Part shown: positions 1,152 to 62,475 of the stretch, piece after piece | Layout of the letters: every line of letters starts with the position of its first letter | Numbering within the stretch: the first letter of the stretch is position 1 | Source: Haliotis rufescens | Lineage: Eukaryota | Assembly: GCF_023055435.1 (NCBI RefSeq) | Contig: NW_025963779.1 | Coordinates: forward strand, 12,834,001-12,898,000 | Direction of reading: 5' to 3' | Length of the DNA stretch: 64,000 nt | Notes under the pieces: model-generated | Database searches by the model: none | What the model saw: only the letters and a program-made list of their open reading frames with translations | What the model was told of the DNA's origin: nothing | Made by a program: the position numbers and the translations under genes

Positions 1152-1236
1152 CTTTGAAAAGGACTTGGATATCCCGGTGTCATGAGAAATTGTTCCTCTT
1201 GGGTTGCGTTGAGATTATCACCTCGACAAGTAGGCC
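1152..1236 (-). CDS. CUB protein exon 8 (start of CUB3)
   Basis: tatttag|GG...CAAAG|gtaccg; GPTCRGDNLNATQEEQFLMTPGYPSPFQ; phase 1-2. Confidence 0.8.
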
Positions 1237-1456
1237 CTAAATAGAAATTATAAACAAAAATCCAACAAAATCTTCAGTGCATGTACGTTTCCAGCAGGAT
1301 GTGCTTTCGAAATATATACAACTAGAACCCCATTGATTGGTAAAATAAGTCAGAAGTGAGTGAGCAACTGTTATTTAACGTTGAAGTCAGCAATATTTAG
1401 CTTTACCACAGCAGTAAGGTGAGTGAAATTGGGTTTATATAGCGACGTGCATGCAC

Positions 1457-1737
1457 GCGTGTGTGTGGCTGCTTGTACTAGACCGGACTGATGCCGATTT
1501 ATAGTGCTATCTCACTGAGATAACATGCCGCAGTTTAACTTGAATACCCCACTCAGACACAGTATACTGACTCCGAGCCGACCAGTCCTTGCTTTAACCC
1601 CTTAATGCCGAGCGCCAGACAGGGTAACAACAAGTACCATCTTTTAACGTCTTTGGGTATGACGCGGCCGGGGATCGAACCCCGGACCTTCCGCTCTCCA
1701 GGCGGACGCCCTAACCACTAGACCATGGAGGCGGTCA
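1457..1737 (-). mobile_element. tRNA-derived SINE (family D); second copy about 31020-31345, fragment about 45975-46060
   Basis: GGTCTAGTGG A box, GGTTCGATCCCC B box, then GTCATACCCAAAGAC...ATGGTACTTG...GGCGCTCGGCA, which from memory resembles the Meta/MESC SINE core (unverified); (CA)n tail. Confidence 0.75.
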
Positions 1738-2913
1738 CCACAGCGGTGAGTGGTCGATAGTAGCAGCACGGATAGAGTGTTACAATGACCCAATTTACGT
1801 TGTAGCTGCTCGATCCTCAATGCTTCAAAATCTAGAGGCTATTGTGGTCTGTTCTTCCCAAATTTCATTTAAAAAGTTAGGTTTAACAATTTATAGATTT
1901 ATTCATGGATGCCAAGTATTTGTATTTTTGTATACACCCCTCATAAAACATAACATACAGTGCCATGAACGCCAGTGCAGTTGATCTTTTGTTTCAGGGG
2001 CGCTGGAATCTTTACACAGTATTGTCAGACGCTTAAGATTAATTCATGTATCATTAATGCCGAATAAATGTTTCCTGGTCGGAATCGAAAATAGTAATCT
2101 ATTTCTAGCAAAACTCCTCAAGCTTCCTACAGTCTTCCTACATATGTGGGTTTATAAACATTATTGCTGGTTTGTGTTTTTATGTTTTTTAACGCCGCAC
2201 TAAGCAATATTCCAGTAATGAAAAGTATGAACCAGACAACCCAGTGACTGACATTATGAGCATCCATCAACGCAACTGGGATACGGCGACGAAGCGAATT
2301 CCATCCCTGATTTTCACTGGGGATATGGAGATTCTTAAATGATTTTTTCGCCAAAATACGAAACGAGTGTAAGAATCTGTGTATATATGTACATGAACTC
2401 CGACTTTAGTTTCGTTAAATCAGTATGATGCCCATACAGGTGTAATAATGTATGTATTATTCGTAGTTCGTAATAGATGTGAACAAGAAAATATGTCTTC
2501 TAGAGACAAAACTTTGAAGAAAAGCTGATTCACATCATAGGAGGATCCGGAGTGGGGGGTGGGGGGTGGGGGTGGGAGTGGGGAGTGATCCAGGGGGTCC
2601 GGATTAGGTGCTGGCGATTAGGTTCCTCACTCTGAGAGTGTAGGTTCGAATCCTGGATGTATTTTATCACATCTTTAAATTACCCCCTCCAATATCTGGA
2701 AATTATTACACAAGATTTCTGATGAAGGGACACCATGCTACAAAGATGAGTATGTGGTGAGGCTGGTTGCGGGGTCTTAAGCCGCAATCCAATCGGAGAA
2801 TGCCATCGATATCTTCATACAATATATGAGGCCCACATTGTAACGTTGTCTGACAAAATGTGTAAAAGTCGACCTTAATATGATTTTAGTTATGTATATC
2901 GTAAGTGTCGAAC

Positions 2914-3045
2914 CTTCGAGAGTTCTGTACTTAAGACGGACACTCCGCTCCGATGATATATGCAGCATCATTGACGCCGACTCACTCCAACTTTGGTAGA
3001 CATTGATTTTCCCTGGACACCACGTGACATCATCTTCCCCGTATT
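2914..3045 (-). CDS. CUB protein exon 7 (end of CUB2)
   Basis: ctgcag|AA...GAAG|gttcga; EYGEDDVTWCPGKINVYQSWSESASMMLHISSERSVRLKYRTLE; phase 1-1. Confidence 0.7.
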
Positions 3046-3315
3046 CTGCAGCATAACATGGCAAATACGTTCGTATTGTATTAGTATGTTAATTACGATA
3101 TTCCGAAAATAGTCGGCGACTCTTTATACACACAAAAGCACAGTATTAGCATTAACATTAACGATCAAGGGAAATTACCACTGCTCGAGTGAGGGTGTGC
3201 ATGCTATAGCCAGCAAGTAAGAAAACGTACAACGTTATGGATAACATGTTCTGGTTTATTGCATATAGCGGTATTTGTATAGTTGGCTTCACCCAATTAA
3301 CTGTATACGACTTAA

Positions 3316-3519
3316 AGTAAGACAAGTTCTATGGATGAACAACTTCTTTATTACAATTAGTGCGACGTTTCGGTGTAGATCCTAATTATATAACACCTTC
3401 ATCAAGCAAGTGATGGCTAGTGCTAAACAACATAGGTGTATATACTTATTAACATCAACACCGAAACGTCGCACTAATTGTAATAAAGAAGTTGTTCATC
3501 CATAGAACTTGTCTTACTT
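3316..3519. mobile_element. Penelope-type inverted repeat (about 62-bp perfect arms) with hammerhead-like motif; related pieces near 5090-5185, 15337-15480, 26565-26625
   Basis: Arms 3316-3377 and 3458-3519 are reverse complements; TGATGA...CGAAACGTCG then AATAAA. Confidence 0.65.
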
Positions 3520-3846
3520 CATCACACCAACTTCTAAAATGCCACTGAAAAAAAGTGTGTGCGACTTATTACCTATTACCTTTGCCAGTGTTAATCTCCT
3601 GCTTATCACAAAATGCCATCATGTATATATACCCCTCGTCACTTTGTTTTTGTCTTTTGTCACTCCAGAGTGTAAGAACCTACGCAATGTGCAATAGATG
3701 CTATCAATAAAGTCGTGCGTTCTCTTACTTACTCAACAACTTCTGGAATTCCAATTAAGCAGTTATATCCAGCAAACTCCACCTTTCACGGCTGCCAGTA
3801 TTATTTGTTTGTGGTTTAACGCTACAATCTGCCATGCTCCAGCTAT

Positions 3847-4075
3847 GAGTGAGTAAGTTGGGTTTAACGCCGCTTTTAACATTATTCCAGTTATATCACG
3901 GCGTGTCAGCTTAATGTGTAACCCACGAGCACGGGTATGGTGCTGACAAACCTAGAAACATAATCGGGGTGAACCGGGATTCGAACCCACAATTATAGGT
4001 TTCAGGCGTGCCCAAGGGACGCAACTCTGCACAGCGAATCGCGGCGCCTTAGACGACTGGGCCACCCGTACCCCC
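3847..4075 (-). mobile_element. tRNA-derived SINE family A (internally deleted copy)
   Basis: A box TGGCCCAGTCG, B box GGTTCGAATCC, (ACTC)n tail, TSD CTCCAGCTAT. Confidence 0.9.
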
Positions 4076-4524
4076 TACTCCAGCTATGTGGCGGCGAACT
4101 GTATATTATGGAGTCTAAAAACACAGTCATAGATTTTGTGTGCAACGTCACACGTCACCAAGGTTGACCATCAGATCATACTTTGTCGTCCCTTGAGACA
4201 AGCATGTCTGGCTGGGGACCAGTTCACAGCCGGAATCCCCACGAGTCAGCCAAGCAAATCAGTGACTGGAGACCAACGATTCTGGTCAACGGATGAAGAT
4301 GGCAAGCAATCGGCCAAGTGACCGAGTCAGATCATCGACCCTCTGTAGTTGGCTTTGGGACATGCATACGGACAACATGGGACCACCATCTCTCCTTGTG
4401 TCCCCATGGGGTTAAACACAGCCGTAGCATATTACCCTGGGAAATATCAATTCAGGTGCTTCTTTACTAACGGGTCATCATGACTGTGGAACTGTGAAGA
4501 GGCGACAATGCTGAAAATCCTCAC

Positions 4525-4643
4525 CATCAAGAAATTTGACTTGAACATGTCCACAGCTGGTGCTGACATTACCAGCTGTTTCTATAGATACACGAACCTG
4601 TTGACCTTTCGGTGCCTTCACTCTCCAACGACACGCAAGTGAT
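4525..4643 (-). CDS. CUB protein exon 6 (middle of CUB2)
   Basis: cccatag|A...GATG|gtgagg; SLACRWRVKAPKGQQVRVSIETAGNVSTSCGHVQVKFLD; phase 2-1. Confidence 0.85.
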
Positions 4644-5374
4644 CTATGGGAGAACAATATATTCCCTTAAATGACAAACTCACCAAATCACACCCTTCAT
4701 TCGTACTTGACATAACTTGCACTTACTTCTCCAATACATGCAACAATATCCATATTTCTCTCCGAGTCCCATGGATGTATATCTTAGTCATACTTTGAAC
4801 TAGTTTCCAGATTAAACAACACAAATCTAACCATAGGGCATTGTAGTTATTGGAAATATAGTCCGTTTTCAAATTAGTTTTTTTCTTACGCTGCTTTTGG
4901 GTTTGACGCCGCATCAGATATCACAAATAAAAAACATCGTTCACTTGAAATTGTTATTTAAATGTATGTCTTGGAGCAGTGACAAAAAGAATTTATCTAA
5001 GCTTGGCCCATTTACTTTTGAAGCAATATTACGCATATCACAGTTGAGCAAACACAGGAACCATTTTTGAGCATGCTCGACCTCATAACGTGAAGATATA
5101 TACAACGGTATAAGGATACATACCGAAACGTCGCCTTTACAGTAAATAAAAAGTTGTTATGCATCAATTGTGTCTACTTTGTCATCCTTCACGTTCATCT
5201 GTTAAACAGTTTTTGACACTTAACACGTTGAAGGCGACTATGCTTTTTGTAAGATGCGACTTGCGGGATCGGGATCGATGCTTATGATGTCAATCACTGG
5301 ATTGTCTGATCCAGACTCGATTATTTACAGACCAACATCATATAGCTGGACTATTGCTCCAAACATACAAAACT

Positions 5375-6660
5375 AAACACGTTCAGCTGTTAAACATGTT
5401 TTGACCCTTAATACGTTAAGCTGTTAAACACGTTTTGACCCTTAACACATTCAGCTGTTAAACACGTTTTGACCCTTAATACGTTCAGCTGTTAAACACG
5501 TTTTGACCCTTAATACGTTCAGCTGTTTAACACGGTTTGACCCTTAACACGTTCAGCTGTCAAAAATGTTTTGACCCTGAACACGTTCAGCTGTTTAACA
5601 CGGTTTGACCCTGAACACGTTCAACTGTTTAACACCGCTTGACCCTGAACACATTCAACTGTTTAACAGGTTTTGACCCTTAATACGTTCAGCTGTTTAA
5701 CACGGTTTGACCCTTAATACGTTCAGCTGTTTAACACGGTTTGACCCTTAACACGTTCAGCGGTTTAACACGGTTTGACCCTGAACACATTCAACTGTTT
5801 AACAGGTTTTGACCCTTAATACGTTCAGCTGTTTAACACGGTTTGACCCTTAATACGTTCAGCTGTTTAACACGGTTTGACCCTTAACACGTTCAGCTGT
5901 TTAACACGGTTTGACCCTTAACACGTTCAGCGGTTTAACACGGTTTGACCCTGAACACATTCAACTGTTTAACAGGTTTTGACCCTTAATACGTTCAGCT
6001 GTTTAACACGGTTTGACCCTTAATACGTTCAGCTGTTTAACACGGTTTGACCCTTAACACGTTCAGCTGTTTAACACGGTTTGACCCTTAACACGTTCAG
6101 CTGTTTAACACGGTTTGACCCTGAACACATTCAGCTGTTTAACATGTTTTGACCCTTAACACGTTCAGCTGTTTAACACGTTTTGACCCTTAATAGTGAG
6201 TGAGTGAGTTGGGTTTTTCGCCGCTTTTAACATTATTCCAGTTATATCACGGTGTTTCAGCTTAATGTGGGAGGAAAGCCCGAAGTGATGCAGGTCTCAG
6301 ACGTTTACCACTTCGGTGAAACCCACGAGCACGGTGCTGACAAACCTAGAAACATAATTGGGGCGAACCGGGATTCGAACCCATAATCATAGGTTTCTGG
6401 CGTGCCCAAGGGACGCAACTCTGCACAGCGAATCGCGGCGCCTTAGACGACTGGGCCACCCTTAATACGTTCAGCTGTTTAACACGGTTTGACCCTGAAC
6501 ACATTCAGCTGTTAAACATGTTTTGACCCTGAACACATTCATCTGTTAAGCAGTTTTTTACCCTGAACACATTCAGCGTTTAAACACGTTTTTGACCCTG
6601 AACACATTCAGCTGTTAAACACGTTTTGACCCTTAACACGTTAAGCTGTTAAACATAATC
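5375..6660. repeat. 34-bp minisatellite interrupted by a family A SINE
   Basis: Unit CAGCTGTTTAACACGGTTTGACCCTTAATACGTT, about 30 copies. Confidence 0.95.
6196..6461 (-). mobile_element. SINE family A inserted in minisatellite
   Basis: Family A sequence flanked by CCCTTAATA. Confidence 0.9.
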
Positions 6661-6767
6661 CTGAACATGTTAAGACCTAACCCGTCAAAACTATGGGACA
6701 AGGAACGGACCTATGTTTGTACAGTGTGTTTCCTTAAACGATGCAAAGGTTTCATTTGATTACGTAC

Positions 6768-6852
6768 CGAGAAGTGCCGTCAGGGTACCCATATGAAAAG
6801 ATGTTATACTCTGTCGTTGAGACAGCAAACACTGATTGTCCATAACAGAGAT
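6768..6852 (-). CDS. CUB protein exon 5 (start of CUB2)
   Basis: gcacag|AT...TCTCG|gtacgt; DLCYGQSVFAVSTTEYNIFSYGYPDGTSR; phase 1-2. Confidence 0.8.
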
Positions 6853-6913
6853 CTGTGCGGAAAAAGTTAGGAGTCAGTAAATATGTTAATGGCAGGACAT
6901 AACTAATGACCTG

Positions 6914-7020
6914 GGCCCACTTGCACAAAGCGATCTTAGTGCTAAGACTATTGTAAGCCTATGTTAAAGTATGGGAGTTACGATCATCTTAGCGCTAAGG
7001 ATTCTTTGTGTAAGCGGGCC
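6914..7020. mobile_element. About 110-bp hairpin MITE, PIF/Harbinger-like; copies near 22172-22280, 27006-27108, 40620-40730, 40797-40905, 56751-56860
   Basis: TIR GGCCCACTTGCACAAAGCGATCTTAG, flanked by CWG trinucleotides; superfamily is inference. Confidence 0.75.
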
Positions 7021-7175
7021 CTGTTACTGCGTGTGTCGGTAGGTGGGATATTATATTTTTAATGTTCAGTGAGGTTGGGTGTGGGGAGTACATTCAGAAG
7101 ATACGAAAGCAGTATTTAAGGTTCATGTCCATATTTTCAAAAGGGGAAGGGGCGTGGGCCATGTCCATGAAACGC

Positions 7176-7719
7176 CATCTTAAAGAGGTAAGGGGGTTAT
7201 CTGACCATAAAGGTCCAGTTTCCACCCCTGTCGAACTAGGCTGGAATTATGGAGCTATATTAGGCTGGACTAACCAGTCTATGCATAGTCCAATCATAAT
7301 CGTGTAGCGAAATCAACATAAGGTTCGTAAACTGCCGTGCAGATTTCGGCCGACTGCAGGATTCTCAAAGTATGTGTACCGTCACCTTAGCGTCAAAAGA
7401 TATTTTCCAGATATTTTCATTTTTGTATTCCAGGTGCTCACGTTATTTAATACACTTCGCGAAGTAAGGACAGTTTTCATGCCAATATCGATATTAATTA
7501 TCGATCAGATCATTTTCACTGGGCGCCATTTTGTTTGAAGCAAATGCAAGTGATATCAGAGGTGGAATATGATTGATCAACAGGGGGGATATAGAAGGGA
7601 CATAACTCGTAATAGCCACTGGAGGCGCTACGATCGAATTCAGAAATTCCGGCCTAGTTAAGTAAGCGTGGAAACTGGAGGTTTTCAGTCAGCTAACTTC
7701 CTTGACTCGTGAAGGTGAT
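7176..7719. mobile_element. About 540-bp non-autonomous TIR element; better copy 57756-58299, fragment about 22800-23055
   Basis: Long TIRs containing CCAGTTTCCACCC...GAACTAGGCTGGAATT; three dispersed similar copies. Confidence 0.75.
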
Positions 7720-8040
7720 GAAACACCAACTCGGCATCCCAGAAGACGCCGCTGCGGTCAGACGTGGTTTAAGGTACTGGAACTGTTATAACTGCAACTC
7801 ATTTGGGCCACTTATAGAAGTGATTTACTATGTGAGCATCACTCCACCCATATAAACACACGGGAACAAACAGGGACAATAGAGAATTTTGGTCAACCAT
7901 AATAAGCAGCCATTATGGACATGCAATCCCCAAATCTCCATTCAGCAACCACGCGGATAATACCTCGTGTGGAAATATGATGTATAATCAGTGGGTGCAT
8001 TTAAATATATTCATAATGCACACGATTTTGCTGCACAAAC

Positions 8041-8181
8041 CTGTTGTGTAATATTTTAGCTCAAAGGCGTTTGTGTCCGTCACTTCAGCCGCGGGGTAGA
8101 CCACAGTGAGGACGTTGCCGGAACTTTGGAAGGAGCTTGTGTAGTTGCCACAAACCAAACCGAGGATGGCGCCGGATGAAT
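8041..8181 (-). CDS. CUB protein exon 4 (end of CUB1)
   Basis: tttacag|AT...ACAG|gtttgt; DSSGAILGLVCGNYTSSFQSSGNVLTVVYPAAEVTDTNAFELKYYTT; phase 1-1. Confidence 0.88.
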
Positions 8182-10558: not shown

Positions 10559-10689
10559 CACCATCATGCACGACGATGCTGTTACTGACGTCACATGATG
10601 GGTGTTGCGTTAAGTTGACGTTCTGGAAATTTAAGGTCACCATCTCGGAAGATCCTGAACTGTTTATTGTCCACGTGCACATCCCGCTG
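10559..10689 (-). CDS. CUB protein exon 3 (middle of CUB1)
   Basis: atttcag|C...GGTG|gtacgt; SGMCTWTINSSGSSEMVTLNFQNVNLTQHPSCDVSNSIVVHDG; phase 2-1. Confidence 0.88.
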
Positions 10690-11068
10690 CTGAAATGTTT
10701 GTTAATGTTAATTTTGTACTAAATACACAAATATATATATATAAAGTGGCGGTTGGGTAGCCTAGTTGGTTAAGCATACGCCTGTAACGACAAAGGCACA
10801 GGTTCGATTCCCAACATGAGTACAATACGTGAAGCCCATGATGGGATTTCTTGTGCCCACTTACTTTCATGTTGAGGTGCACATAATCGCGTAAAGATAT
10901 GCACATACGTTTGGCATATATCAATTGTGTATGAACCACGCTGTATGATCATACACACCATACGTGTGTCGTTAACATTCATAAGTGTTCGTTTACTTCA
11001 TGTGAGGAATGATGCAATTCTTTAGAATAAGATTATTATTGTGTTTAGCGAGAAAGTTAGCGTCTTAC

Positions 11069-11132
11069 CCTCCGACTACAGCCTTCTGACTCCCACTGGT
11101 GTCTGCTTGGAGGGTCAGGTCGCATGACTGAG
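11069..11132 (-). CDS. CUB protein exon 2 (start of CUB1)
   Basis: tttttcag|CT...GGAGG|gtaaga; AQSCDLTLQADTSGSQKAVVG; phase 1-2 exactly bridges exons 1 and 3 and supplies the first CUB Cys. Confidence 0.75.
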
Positions 11133-12692
11133 CTGAAAAATACATGTCACATGATCATCACTGGGCTGACAAATACATGTCACATGATCATCACTGGACT
11201 GAAAAGTACGTGTCACATGATCATGACCTGGCTGAAAAGTACATATCACATGATCATCACTTGGCTGACAAATACATGTCACATGATCATCACCTGGCTG
11301 AAAAGTACATATCACATGATCATCACTTGGCTGAAAAGTATATGTCACATGATCATCACCTGGCTGAAAAGTACATGTCACATGATCATGACTGAGCTGA
11401 CAAATACATGTCACATGATCATGACTGAGCTGACAAATACATGTCACATGATCATGACTGAGCTGACAAATACATGTCACATGATCATGACCTGGCTGAC
11501 AAATACATGTCACGTGATCATGACTGGGCTGACAAATACATGTCACATGATCATCACTTTGTTGAAAAGTGCATGTCACATGATCATGAATGAGCTGAAA
11601 AGTACATGTCACATGATGCTGAAAAGTACATGTCACATGATCATGACAGCTGAAAAGTACATGTCACATGATCATGACTGGGCTGACAAATACATGTCAC
11701 ATGATCATGACTGGGCTGACAAATACATGTCACATGATCATCACTTTGTTGAAAAGTGCATGTCACATGATCATGAATGAGCTGAAAAGTACATGTCACA
11801 TGATGCTGAAAAGTACATGTCACATGATCATGACAGCTGAAAAGTACATGTCACATGATCATGACTGGGCTGACAAATACATGTCACATGATCATGACTG
11901 GGCTGACAAATACATGTCACATGATCATGACTGGGCTGACAAATACATGTCACATGATCATCACTTTGTTGAAAAGTACATGACACATGATCATGACTGA
12001 GCTGAAAAGTACATGTCACATGATCATGACCTGGCTGAAAAGTACATGTCACATGATCATCACTTGGCTGAAAAGTACGTGTCACATGATCATAAGTGAG
12101 CTGAAAAGTACATATCACATGATCATCACTTGGCTGAAAAGTACATGTCACATGATCATAAGTGAGCTGAAAAGTACATATCACATGATCATCAGTTGGC
12201 TGAAAAGTACATATCACATGATCATCACTTGGCTGAAAAGTACATATCACATGATCATCACTTGGCTGAAAAGTACATATCACATGATCATCACTTGGCT
12301 GAAAAGTACATATCACATGATCATCAACTGGCTGAAAAGTACATGTCACATGATCATCAACTGGCTGAAAAGTACATGTCACATGATCATGACTGAGATG
12401 AAAAGTACATGTCACATGATCATCACTTGGCTGAAAAGTACATGTCACATGATCATCACTTTGTTGAAAAGTACATGTCACGTGATCATGACTTGGCTGA
12501 CAAATACATGTCACATGATCATGATTGAGCTGAAAAGTACATGTCACATGATCATGACTGGGCTGACAAATACATGTCACATGATCATCACTTGGCTGAA
12601 AAGTATGTGTCACATGATCATCACTTGGCTGAAAAGTATGTGTCACATGATCATCACTGAGCTGAAAAATGTATGTCACGTGATCATGACTG
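11124..12692. repeat. 33-bp minisatellite (about 47 copies) overlapping the exon 2 acceptor
   Basis: Unit CTGAGCTGAAAAGTACATGTCACATGATCATGA; internal about 187-bp higher-order duplication near 11520-11900. Confidence 0.97.
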
Positions 12693-13696
12693 ATATCTGT
12701 TACAAGGCTGCATAGAAATGGATTTCTTGATCACACTTTCTTAAACAATTAGGAGGGAGGTAGGACCTTTTCATACTGTTTTTATTTAAATCAAATTGGT
12801 GATGAGGAAGGAACACTTTTGGGAAAATAGACACGCATTGAACTCCTTTATGCAAACAGAAAACACTGTCTGCTTCGTATGACGTGAGAATTTCTATTTT
12901 ATTTCAACATTTCCTTTTTATTGCCCTAAAAATGTATAAAGATTCTACGTCCGTTATTATTATCCCCATAAAATAATTTTCCAAGCATACCTTAAACAGT
13001 GATGGGATGTGAGAATTTGTCGAAAATAAATATTATCATTTCCATAAATTTGGTATCATCATCATCATCATCAGTACGTACATGTAGATGTGTCATTAAT
13101 ATCACAACTACTTAATCATTATTGCATTGATATAGAAATAATATTATAAATATAGGACAATAAAAGTCTTTCCATGAATAATCTCATATGTGTGTGTTTA
13201 TCAGTAACCTAAACTGTTGACTACAAGTGATACAGCCGACATGGCCCAGTTCTCTCGCAACACGTTACCAAAAATAGACACGGACGTCCCAATACAAGAA
13301 TAGAATTGAACAAACTAAACACTGAATACATTTTCATTAAACAGGATGATGATAAAGAGTAACGGCTGTATGTCAATGTTATACTACTGCACGAGAAATG
13401 TTTCAATGGCTGACGGATGGGTTGCGACAAGATCGGTCCGGACACACCAAGCCGTTCTATTATACACATGTACACATACTGTACGCGGTCAAGGTCACAT
13501 TCTCGTCTGTCTGTCGGTTACTCTTGTACTCAGAGAGTTAACAAATACATTTCACCCACGTCCACGATAATGTTCACGTTCAGCTAAAAGACGCGTGATT
13601 TACCAGTTAGACACGATCGTTCGGAATGCGGTCGTCCCTATTTTCAAGCATGCCGATCGATATCTAATCTAGAGTTTACCTGTACAAACAACTCAC

Positions 13697-13757
13697 CTGT
13701 AACTGTTGTCGTTGTGAACAGCAGAAACAAGGTGAGATGCACATATCTCGCCATCAT
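13697..13757 (-). CDS. CUB protein exon 1 (signal peptide)
   Basis: MMARYVHLTLFLLFTTTTVT then ACAG|gtgagt, phase 1. Confidence 0.75.
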
Positions 13758-14118
13758 GAAAACAGCAGATGTTGGATGTTGGCGGTACAGGTGACGAGGA
13801 GTGGCACAGGTTGGCACAGTCGGTGACGAGGAATGGTAGATATTAGTTACCCGACCAGTCTATGGGATCAGTGGTCGTGACGACCTCACAGTGCGTTCAT
13901 GTGCACCGAGAACGGTACATCGTATTTCCCTGCTTTACGACACCGCTGATTCGCTAGACCTGTTTAGTGCTTGCTCGGTTCTGCTCTGGTTGCGATGATC
14001 CCGTGTTTTATAAAAGTCGAACGGCTAACACTGTAAGCTATACTCTGAAGAGTGTAAAAGATGCGTTTCACTTTAGGTTCATAAAATACACCTGGAAAAA
14101 GCTAACCACCATATAAAA

Positions 14119-50906: not shown

Positions 50907-52590
50907 TTTACCATGTTACCTTGACAAATGTCAATCTGAAGGAACCTTGCTTACCAAGACAAATGTCAGCCTGAAGGAACCTTGCTTACCATGACAAATG
51001 TTAATATGAACGAACCTTGCTTACCATGACAAATGTCAATCTGAAGGAACCTTGCTTACCATGACAAATGTCAATCTGAAGGAACCTTGCTTACCAAGAC
51101 AAATGTCAATCTGAAGGAACCTTGCTTACCATGACAAATGTCAATCTGAACGAACCTTGCTTACCATGACAAATGTCAATATGAACGAACCTTGCTTACC
51201 ATGACAAATGTCAATATGAAGGAACCTTGCTCACCATGACAAATGTCAATCTGAAGGAACCTTGCTTACCATGACAAATGTCAATCTGAAGGAACCTTGC
51301 TTACCAAGACAAATGTCAATCTGAAGGAACCTTGCTTACCAAGACAAATGTCAATCTGAAGGAACCTTGCTTACCATGAAAAATGTTAATATGAAGGAAC
51401 CTTGCTTACCAAGACAAATGTCAATCTGAAGGAACCTTGCTTACCATGACAAATGTTAATATGAACAAACCTTGCTTACCATGACAAATTGCAATCTGAA
51501 GGAACCTTGCTTACCAAGACAAATGTCAGCCTGAACGAACCTTGCTTACCATGACAAATGTCAATATGAACGAACCTTGCTTACCATGACAAATTGCAAT
51601 CTGAAGGAACCTTGCTTACCAAGACAAATGTCAATCTGAAGGAACCTTGCTTACCATGACAAATGTTAATATGAACGAACCTTGCTTACCATGACAAATG
51701 TCAATCTAAAGGAACCTTGCTTACCAAGACAAATGTCAGCCTGAATGAACCTTGCTTACCATGACAAATGTCAATATGAACGAACCTTGCTTACCATGAC
51801 AAATTGCAATCTGAAGGAACCTTGCTTACCAAGACAAATGTCAGCCTGAACGAACCTTGCTTACCAAGACAAATGGCTTTAAAAAGGAACCTTGCTTACC
51901 ATGACAAATGTCAATCTGAAGGAACCTTGCTTACCAAGACAAATGTCAATCTGAACGAACCTTGCTTACCATGACAAATGTCAATCTGAACGAACCTTGC
52001 TCACCATGACAAATGTCAATCTGAACGAACCTTGCTCACCATGACAAATGTCAATCTGAAGGAACCTTGCTTACCATGACAAATCTCAATCTGAAGGAAC
52101 CTTGCTTACCAAGACAAATGTCAATATGAACGAACCTTGCTTACCATGACAAATGTCAATCTGAAGGAACATTGCTTACCATGACAAATGTTAATATGAA
52201 CGAACCTTGCTCACCATGACAAATGTCAATCTGAAGGAACCTTGCTTACCAAGACAAATGTCAATCTGAACGAACCTTGCTTACCATGACAAATGTCAAT
52301 CTGAACGAACCTTGCTTACCAAGACAAATGTCAATCTGAAGGAACATTGCTTACCATGACAAATGTCAATCTGAAGGAACCTTGCTCACCATGACAAATG
52401 TCAATCTGAAGGAACCTTGCTTACCAAGACAAATGTCAATCTGAAGCAACCTTGCTCACCATGACAAATGTCAATCTGAAGGAACCTTGCTTACCTTGAC
52501 AAATGTCAATCTGAAGGAACCTTGCTCACCAAGACAAATGGCAATCTGAACGAACCTTGCTTACCATGACAAATGGCAATCTGAAGGAAC
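50907..52590. repeat. 35-bp minisatellite, about 48 copies
   Basis: Unit GAACCTTGCTTACCATGACAAATGTCAATCTGAAG. Confidence 0.97.
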
Positions 52591-60231: not shown

Positions 60232-60892
60232 CGTATTTACCACCAGAACACACATTTCCTGTAGGAACACACTTTTACCACCAGAACAGACATTTCCTGT
60301 AGGAACACACTATTACCACCAGAACACACATTTCCTGTAGGAACACACTATTACCATTAGAACACACATTTCCTGTAGGAACACACTATTACCATCAGAA
60401 CACACATTTCCTGTAGGAACATACTACCAGAACACACATTTCCTGTCAGAACACACTTTTACCATCAGAACACACTTTTACCATCAGAACAAACATCTCC
60501 TGTCAGAACACACTTTTACCATCAGAACACACATTTCCTGTCGGAACACACTTTTACCACCAGAACACACATTTCCTATAGGAACACACTTTTACCACCA
60601 GAACACACATTTCCTGTTGGAACACACTATTACCATCAGAACACACATTTCCTGTAGGAACACACTATTACCACCAGAACACACATTTCCTGTAGGAACA
60701 CACTATTACCATCAGAACACACATTTCCTGTAGGAACACACTTTTACCATCAGAACACACATTTCCTGTCGGAACACACTTTTACCATTAGAACACACAT
60801 TTCCTGTCGGAACACAGTTTTACCATCAGAACACACATTTCCTGTCAGAAAACACTTTTACCATCAGAACACACATTTTCTGTCGGAACACA
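60232..60892. repeat. 38-bp minisatellite, about 17 copies
   Basis: Unit ACCAGAACACACATTTCCTGTAGGAACACACTATTACC. Confidence 0.95.
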
Positions 60893-61761: not shown

Positions 61762-62376
61762 TGTAGTTGAATTTGACCACTACGACTGATCTGTCTGCCA
61801 GGAACTACCACGATACCGCTGTACTAACCTAGAGCATTCAGCCTGTAGTTGAATGTGACCACTACGACTGATCTCTGCCAGGAACTACCAGGATACCGCT
61901 GTACTAACCTAGAGCATTCAGCCTGTAGTTGAATGTGACCACTATGGCTTATCTGTCTGCCAGGAACTACCAAGATACCGCTGTACTAACCTAGAGCATT
62001 CAGCCTGTAGTTGAATGTGACCACGACGACTGATCTGTCTGCCAGGAACTACCAGGATACCGCTGTACTAACCTTGAGCATTCAGCCTGTAGTTGAATGT
62101 GACCACGACGACTCATCTGTCTGCCAGGAACTACCACGATACCGCTGTACTAACCTAGAGCATTCAGCCTGTAGTTGAATGTGACCACGACGACTCATCT
62201 GTCTGCCAGGAACTACCACGATACCGCTGTACTAACCTAGAGCATTCAGCCTGTAGTTGAATGTGACCACGACGACTCATCTGTCTGCCAGGAACTACCA
62301 CGATACCGCTGTACTAACCTAGAGCATTCAGCCTGTAGTTGAATGTGACCACGACGACTGATCTGTCTGCTAGGAA
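61762..62376. repeat. 82-bp tandem array made of an exon 3' end plus its donor site
   Basis: GTACTAACCT recurs at 61821, 61901, 61983, 62065, 62147, 62229, 62311. Confidence 0.95.
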
Positions 62377-62475
62377 CATGCCAGGGTACTGCTGTCCAGA
62401 CCCCATGGTCCAGCCTCCTCCATGGATAAACACCAACACTGGGTACAAGTTAGTTCCTCCAAAATCATCAATTTT
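62319..62475 (-). CDS. Esterase-like exon with oxyanion-hole GGG (missed by ORF track)
   Basis: cttcag|KIDDFGGTNLYPVLVFIHGGGWTMGSGQQYPGMFLADRSVVVVTFNYRLNAL G|gttagt; phase 0-1. Confidence 0.95.

Follow-up and report, generated by a model that had tools for sequence, protein, structure and literature searches.

The window analyzed here, a 64,000-nucleotide stretch of the Haliotis rufescens genome, contains exons 1 to 8 of a 20-exon, multi-CUB gene on the minus strand, while exons 9 to 20 are found to the left of the window (Table 1). The exon chain reproduces letter for letter RefSeq P0004 of H. rufescens, a 771-amino-acid protein whose name, "cubilin-like," is an automatic label. The host protein has tandem CUB domains, with PF00431 matches in Pfam on exon 3 and on homologues, as well as a signal peptide and a C-terminal hydrophobic segment, both recognized by eye. 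From these sequence features it is predicted to be a CUB-domain membrane protein, cubilin/DMBT1-like by automatic annotation labels. The protein sequence encoded by exon 2 is identical between two Haliotis species, whose whole proteins are 93% alike. Intron 1 is 2564 nt long and the other intron flanking exon 2 is 379 nt long. At exon 3, a tandem CAGCAG acceptor (10689-10686, minus strand) gives isoforms with and without one serine in the RefSeq models of both species.

Multi-CUB genes or part-genes, at least four in number, form a cluster on the minus strand of G000:C1:12704000-12848000. This neighborhood also holds a decayed exon 3-like copy about 20 kb to the left of the window, a protein-kinase-like reading frame between two CUB genes about 27.3 kb to the left (L013; recognized by eye) and, about 34.3 kb to the left, exon 1 of paralogue B (L014), whose intron 1 starts with GC, in contrast to the GT of the gene in the window.

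Table 1. Features of the host gene and of the array at the end of its intron 1 (positions in the window).
Feature	Position	Strand	Remarks
Exon 1	13697..13955	-	ATG at 13757, signal-peptide-like; donor GTGAGT at 13696; 5' end is the reach of contig X1
Unique part of intron 1	12694..13696	-	Patches homologous to paralogue B intron 1
Intronic copy of the 9-nt microhomology TCAGTCATG	12685..12693	-	Exonic copy is 11131-11123
47 spare units (21 nt acceptor side + 12 nt)	11154..12682	-	42 with AG in register
Two higher-order blocks, 187 bp each	11550..11923	-	Identical at 187/187; each with a 31-bp and a 24-bp deletion unit
Authentic acceptor (unit 48) TATTTTTCAG	11133..11153	-	Contigs and RefSeq exon chain
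Exon 2, 64 nt, AQSCDLTLQADTSGSQKAVVGG	11069..11132	-	Donor GTAAGA at 11068; contigs and RefSeq
Exon 3, CUB	10559..10689	-	Pfam PF00431, E 0.0009, slightly below the curated cut-off
Exons 4-8, same gene	1152..8181: 8181-8041, 6852-6768, 4643-4525, 3045-2914, 1236-1152	-	RefSeq chain

The end of intron 1 is occupied by a tandem array at 11123-12692 with a period of 33 and 48.2 copies (TRF score 2023, far beyond chance), which on the minus strand reads as 48 units: 44 of 33 bp, two of 31 bp and two of 24 bp. The units fall into 30 distinct types and have a mean identity of 0.91 to their consensus. A full unit comprises 21 nt of acceptor side and then 12 nt whose beginning resembles that of exon 2. 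Unit alignment together with the exon chain confirmed the proposal of an earlier, sequence-only reading that the 33-bp unit is an amplified acceptor joined to the start of exon 2. Exon 2 has its authentic acceptor in the final unit, number 48. The other 47 units are spare and carry only 9-10 nt of exon-derived sequence. The same reading had counted a 3' splice site amplified about 47 times; that number stands for the spare units but not for the splice sites, as the AG is kept in register in 42 of them (hereafter decoys) and lost in five, four of which have CAA and one CAT. A branch-point-like TGAT is found at -23/-26 in each unit. The tracts of the units vary: 27 units have TACTTTTCAG, 14 decoys have TTTGTCAG, and TTTTTCAG is restricted to units 1 and 48, so that both end units carry the working-type TTTTTCAG-CTCAG. 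Inside the array there are runs of like units and higher-order structure in the form of the two 187-bp blocks.

The acceptor used by transcripts was identified from assembled contigs and RefSeq models. The contig comparison covered four of 23 listed runs and the region 12620-14000, which includes about two of the 48 units; 14 rows of the run listing were guessed to be RNA (shares 0.07-0.11), and raw reads were available only for three small-RNA libraries. Contigs X1 (study P1, depth 14.5) and X3 (study P2, depth 17.3) run through exon 1, leave it at the donor and continue unbroken with letters that match 11132-11103 at 30/30 positions shown, which places the junction at 13697 to 11132. Neither X1 nor X3 gave cover over the intron or over the units within the region compared, and this gap carries no weight here. 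Both contigs are only guessed to be RNA, a guess favored by their clean skip of a 2564-nt GT-AG intron. The junction to 11132 is found in 2/2 contigs covering exon 1, at low depth and in assemblies of a kind that drop rare variants. RefSeq models of two Haliotis species, which were generated automatically and could be based on the runs that gave the contigs, contain exon 2 in 4/4 cluster members. The earlier reading hinged on 11132-11069 being used as an exon and on this exon belonging to the last unit of the array, and the contig junctions and RefSeq chain bear out both points. It had also called for mapping of junctions from donor 13696; in the assembled contigs these lead to 11132 as the main form, with minor forms below resolution. 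The main form of the transcripts is spliced at the authentic site in the last unit. In a further run, X13 (organism B, guessed to be RNA), only short pieces of units were found within 12620-12690, at a depth of 12-54 and with no exon 1. X13 is likely DNA at shallow depth, so that contigs formed from the multi-copy part alone; were it RNA, that organism would have RNA that contains the array.

The consequences of decoy use were predicted by conceptual splicing to exon 1. After the junction, the 42 in-register decoys run into a stop after two (18 decoys), three (20), five (2) or 11 residues (2). The earlier statement that decoy use leads to a stop within three codons is thus accurate for 38/42 decoys, the exceptions being the two that stop after five residues and the two that stop after 11. 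Between 12696 and 11127, 83 AGs were counted, of which 40 besides the decoys are out of register, and eight out-of-register AGs open a long repeat frame of 37-289 residues before a stop is reached. All 81 AGs upstream of 11132 meet a stop before exon 2 ends, so the more general claim that decoy use gives a premature stop applies to 81/81. Such early stops require no selection, because the exon codon TGC becomes TGA at the intronic A of the duplication joint, and among random 33-mers of the window 47% hold a stop in a given frame and 22% have one within four codons. The duplication joint yields the stop as a by-product, and the stop is unsurprising by itself.

The long repeat frame raises the question of whether the array may be coding, with an out-of-register acceptor (e.g., 12696) attaching a secreted chain, (HVTCTFQPSDD)n, rich in His, Cys and Asp, to the signal peptide. 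One frame is indeed open for 288 codons, and a stop in that frame is made by 0/20 variant alleles; however, only 2/99 possible changes would give a stop, and the variants, four synonymous to 16 replacement, are distributed as expected by chance (19:78 possible). The chain is also absent from the junctions seen and from the protein models, and Pfam matches on the repeat include no passing stretch. A coding repeat is therefore extremely unlikely, and a coding VNTR was rejected on the two frame-shifting deletion blocks and the 4:16 ratio of variants.

It is also highly improbable that the array is an assembly artefact or a dispersed satellite or transposon-borne repeat that landed beside the exon, although unrelated minisatellites are numerous in the window (54 TRF rows). 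In G000, the unit is found only at this locus, with 36/36 exact pattern matches and 19/19 BLAST matches inside the array, in a search that skips very common words and hence is not proof of rarity. Paralogues B and C, which lie about 46 kb and 123 kb away in tandem, lack an array: their homologous exon 2 is preceded by one acceptor only, TTTGTCAG (true of 2/2 paralogues in which exon 2 could be identified; for paralogue C, exon 1 is outside the stretch compared), and the array unit aligns with both single acceptors. For a fourth paralogue, whose exon 1 is at G000:C1:12769391, no exon 2 was found in the 20 kb examined, and it was left out of the count. The 30 distinct unit types likewise argue against this reading, as does run X15 of another organism (organism C), a contig of which bridges the unique intron into the units, with depth piling up over the units and both main unit types present. 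The dispersed-repeat and artefact reading is largely refuted by these observations.

Because two paralogues have one acceptor each, the array arose by local duplication. The 9-nt TCAGTCATG is present at 12693 and at 11131, one copy at each end of the array; in the single-copy state its two copies would have been 33 nt apart and are the likely seed of the first duplication. The array may have been born by slippage or unequal crossing-over at this 9-nt microhomology and may have grown by unequal exchange, while later homogenization could also have extended the length of the match. Given that the two 187-bp blocks are identical at every position, turnover is likely to be recent. At the same time, the X15 contig covers the intron with about 50 differences in 1348 letters, or about 4% intron divergence, and carries the array, which indicates that the array predates the split from this relative. 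Persistence of the array across such divergence is allowed, though not required, by neutrality.

Four of the seven common array alleles (-5G, +2C, +3A and +7G) match paralogue B or C and not the working unit. As 14/93 possible changes would match a paralogue, p is about 0.012, a post hoc value that is uncorrected for mutation bias and allele linkage. These paralogue-like inner alleles may reflect an older boundary preserved inside the array with the ends replaced later, conversion from paralogues into the array, or chance. They and the presence of both main unit types in the relative hint at a further reading, in which the array is an old, still-recombining store of earlier exon 2 boundaries that exchanges sequence with the working unit or with the tandem paralogues; it could then alter the acceptor and the codons with which the mature receptor begins, and its length would set a small, NMD-bound leak. 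We regard this reading as unlikely.

Our preferred explanation, which we consider probable, is that the locus carries a locus-specific boundary minisatellite whose observed transcripts join exon 1 to the last unit, probably through exon definition with donor 11068, and whose 47 spare units are near-neutral intron. Exon definition would pair this donor with the nearest acceptor, that of unit 48, so that the choice would depend on position and not on the strength of the sites or the folding of the RNA. Exon-internal enhancers, which are absent from the copies, would perhaps help exon definition, and the choice is likely to be made earlier, when one branch point/AG cassette is recognized. The rule that the first AG after a branch point is used need not be broken, because each unit has its own branch-point-like TGAT. 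Any rare transcript spliced to a decoy would contain a premature stop and fall to NMD; the array would then be cheap to carry, but would not thereby be a regulator. Human exons with flanking introns above about 250 nt are reported to be recognized by exon definition, with the sites closest across the exon preferred (PMC9225289). The two introns around exon 2 both exceed this length, a threshold that is a statistical tendency in human applied here to an abalone gene. Exon definition by the downstream donor, which the earlier reading had offered as a fallback, is thus kept as the best explanation, with a mechanism carried over from human data. Among the points against it, the nearest decoys would give exons of ordinary sizes (97, 130 and 163 nt).

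Site strength alone does not single out the last unit. With a crude matrix built from 18 acceptors of the host gene, the 42 decoys score 5.4-11.3 and the real site 11.3, and four decoys tie with the real site. RNA structure was rejected as the main mechanism for hiding the decoys, as three 231-nt pieces of the array fold no more stably than their shuffles (z +0.7, +1.3 and +0.7; 60 shuffles each). In terms of accessibility (8-nt unpaired probability), the real site ranks third of 43 (0.24) and the nearest decoy, in unit 47, is the lowest (0.00), a ranking which suggests that local features may help the choice of the real site. That such features (an unbroken T5 tract, accessibility, an enhancer deeper in exon 2) rather than donor distance mainly determine the choice would agree with the restriction of TTTTTCAG to the end units and with the short exon-derived part of the spare units. 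Nevertheless, 27 units have TACTTTTCAG, the tie on the matrix includes four decoys, and the tract with which both paralogues splice, TTTGTCAG, also occurs in 14 decoys. Such a dominant role of local features is very unlikely, although local features and exon definition are hard to separate and both may act.

Tandem duplications of exon-intron boundaries, called "mirages," have been described in amphioxus Adh3, BflGb6, BflGb9, TnC and PGBD5 (PMC3087553; PMC3902484). The array described here is such a mirage, i.e., an exon-intron boundary minisatellite of a kind already known from amphioxus and humans, and is a molluscan, acceptor-side example: its units span a real boundary, its origin is local, a good many AGs, though not every one, are kept and the main mRNA is spliced at the authentic site. 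In BflGb6, the repeated segment joins an intron's 3' end to the beginning of exon 2, and regular splicing reportedly goes on unimpaired (PMC3087553; PMC3902484). The abalone array differs in having 48 units of 33 bp, whereas in these accounts BflGb6 has three to six units of 150-160 bp and Adh3 has units of 10-72 bp. Length instability between haplotypes has been shown for amphioxus mirages, while the abalone array was sized in one assembly. Our search of the open-access literature found no report on this locus or on boundary minisatellites of abalone.

Human genes provide related cases. In CBS 844ins68 (c.844_845ins68), the last 52 intron bases and the first 16 exon bases are duplicated, the 3' splice site included (PMC7490669; PMC13282417). 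As in abalone, the duplication is on the acceptor side, and the upstream copy is reported to be spliced out with a normal mRNA (PMC7490669; PMC13282417). It has, however, two copies and is polymorphic in people, whereas the abalone array has 48 and also occurs in a relative. Donor-side boundary VNTRs have been described in F7 IVS7 (37 bp, 5-9 copies), 6-16, CBS IVS13, LMNB2 and PDGF (PMC1557585). In these, too, a minisatellite repeats a splice site and the exon-adjacent site is reported to be used alone or mostly, and the F7 paper argues for oriented scanning (PMC1557585). The repeated sites are donors rather than acceptors, and in 6-16 and CBS IVS13 the two nearest pseudo-sites are used as well (PMC1557585), which counts against the near-neutral explanation preferred here.

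These precedents also bear on the proposal of the sequence-only reading that the array is a copy-number rheostat for splicing, in which a share of transcripts would be spliced to spare acceptors or skip exon 2 and be removed by NMD, so that array length would set output. The ABCA7 intron 18 VNTR has a 25-bp unit that begins with the exon donor, and retention of one unit is reported to cause a frameshift and NMD (PMC5954066). Use of this one-unit pseudo-donor is unchanged with VNTR length, but length tracks skipping of exon 19 and expression (PMC5954066). Because a boundary VNTR can affect splicing with its length in this way, the rheostat stays alive at low odds. Decoys up to the strength of the real site, the premature stops from all 81 upstream AGs, the retention of the array in a relative and the signs of recent turnover are consistent with it as well. 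In contrast to ABCA7, however, the abalone junctions seen lead only to 11132 (two low-depth contigs), as in the 4/4 RefSeq models, the stops are expected from the duplication joint and from chance, the paralogues manage without an array, and amphioxus mirages are reported without aberrant mRNA (PMC3087553; PMC3902484). Consequently, we do not adopt the proposal and consider a rheostat quite unlikely.

The window holds another array at a splice site. At 61762-62377 on the minus strand, a repeat of 82 bp x 7.5 copies the 3' end of a carboxylesterase-family exon together with its donor GTTAGT; the source exon (62475-62319) matches Pfam COesterase with an E of 1e-14, and seven donor-like copies are present. 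Such arrays were not found to be enriched: 2/11 arrays in 124 kb span a splice site, and excluding the focal array one was seen against 0.27-0.46 expected (P 0.24-0.37), an expectation that assumes 76-130 splice sites. A second boundary array in the window is within chance given 11 arrays in 124 kb. Two intronic arrays on the minus strand come near a boundary. The array at 50916-52590 (35 bp x 48) has in its unit an acceptor-like TTCCTTCAG and, 16 nt from it, a donor-like GTAAGC. It stops some 35 nt short of an apparent acceptor, and that boundary is not copied. The 38-bp array at 60237-60892, in the carboxylesterase-family gene, has AG- and GTAA-like motifs and ends about 100 nt before the next acceptor.

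Thus, the abalone locus extends a known oddity by a large example that is molluscan and on the acceptor side. With 42 near-equal acceptors, two array-free paralogues and at least two species, it is a natural substrate that suits asking how an invertebrate spliceosome picks among identical 3' splice sites. The paralogue-like inner alleles are the only part that could raise the array above the ordinary, and the finding would matter more if expression were tuned by array length or if sequence from the array entered the coding exon.
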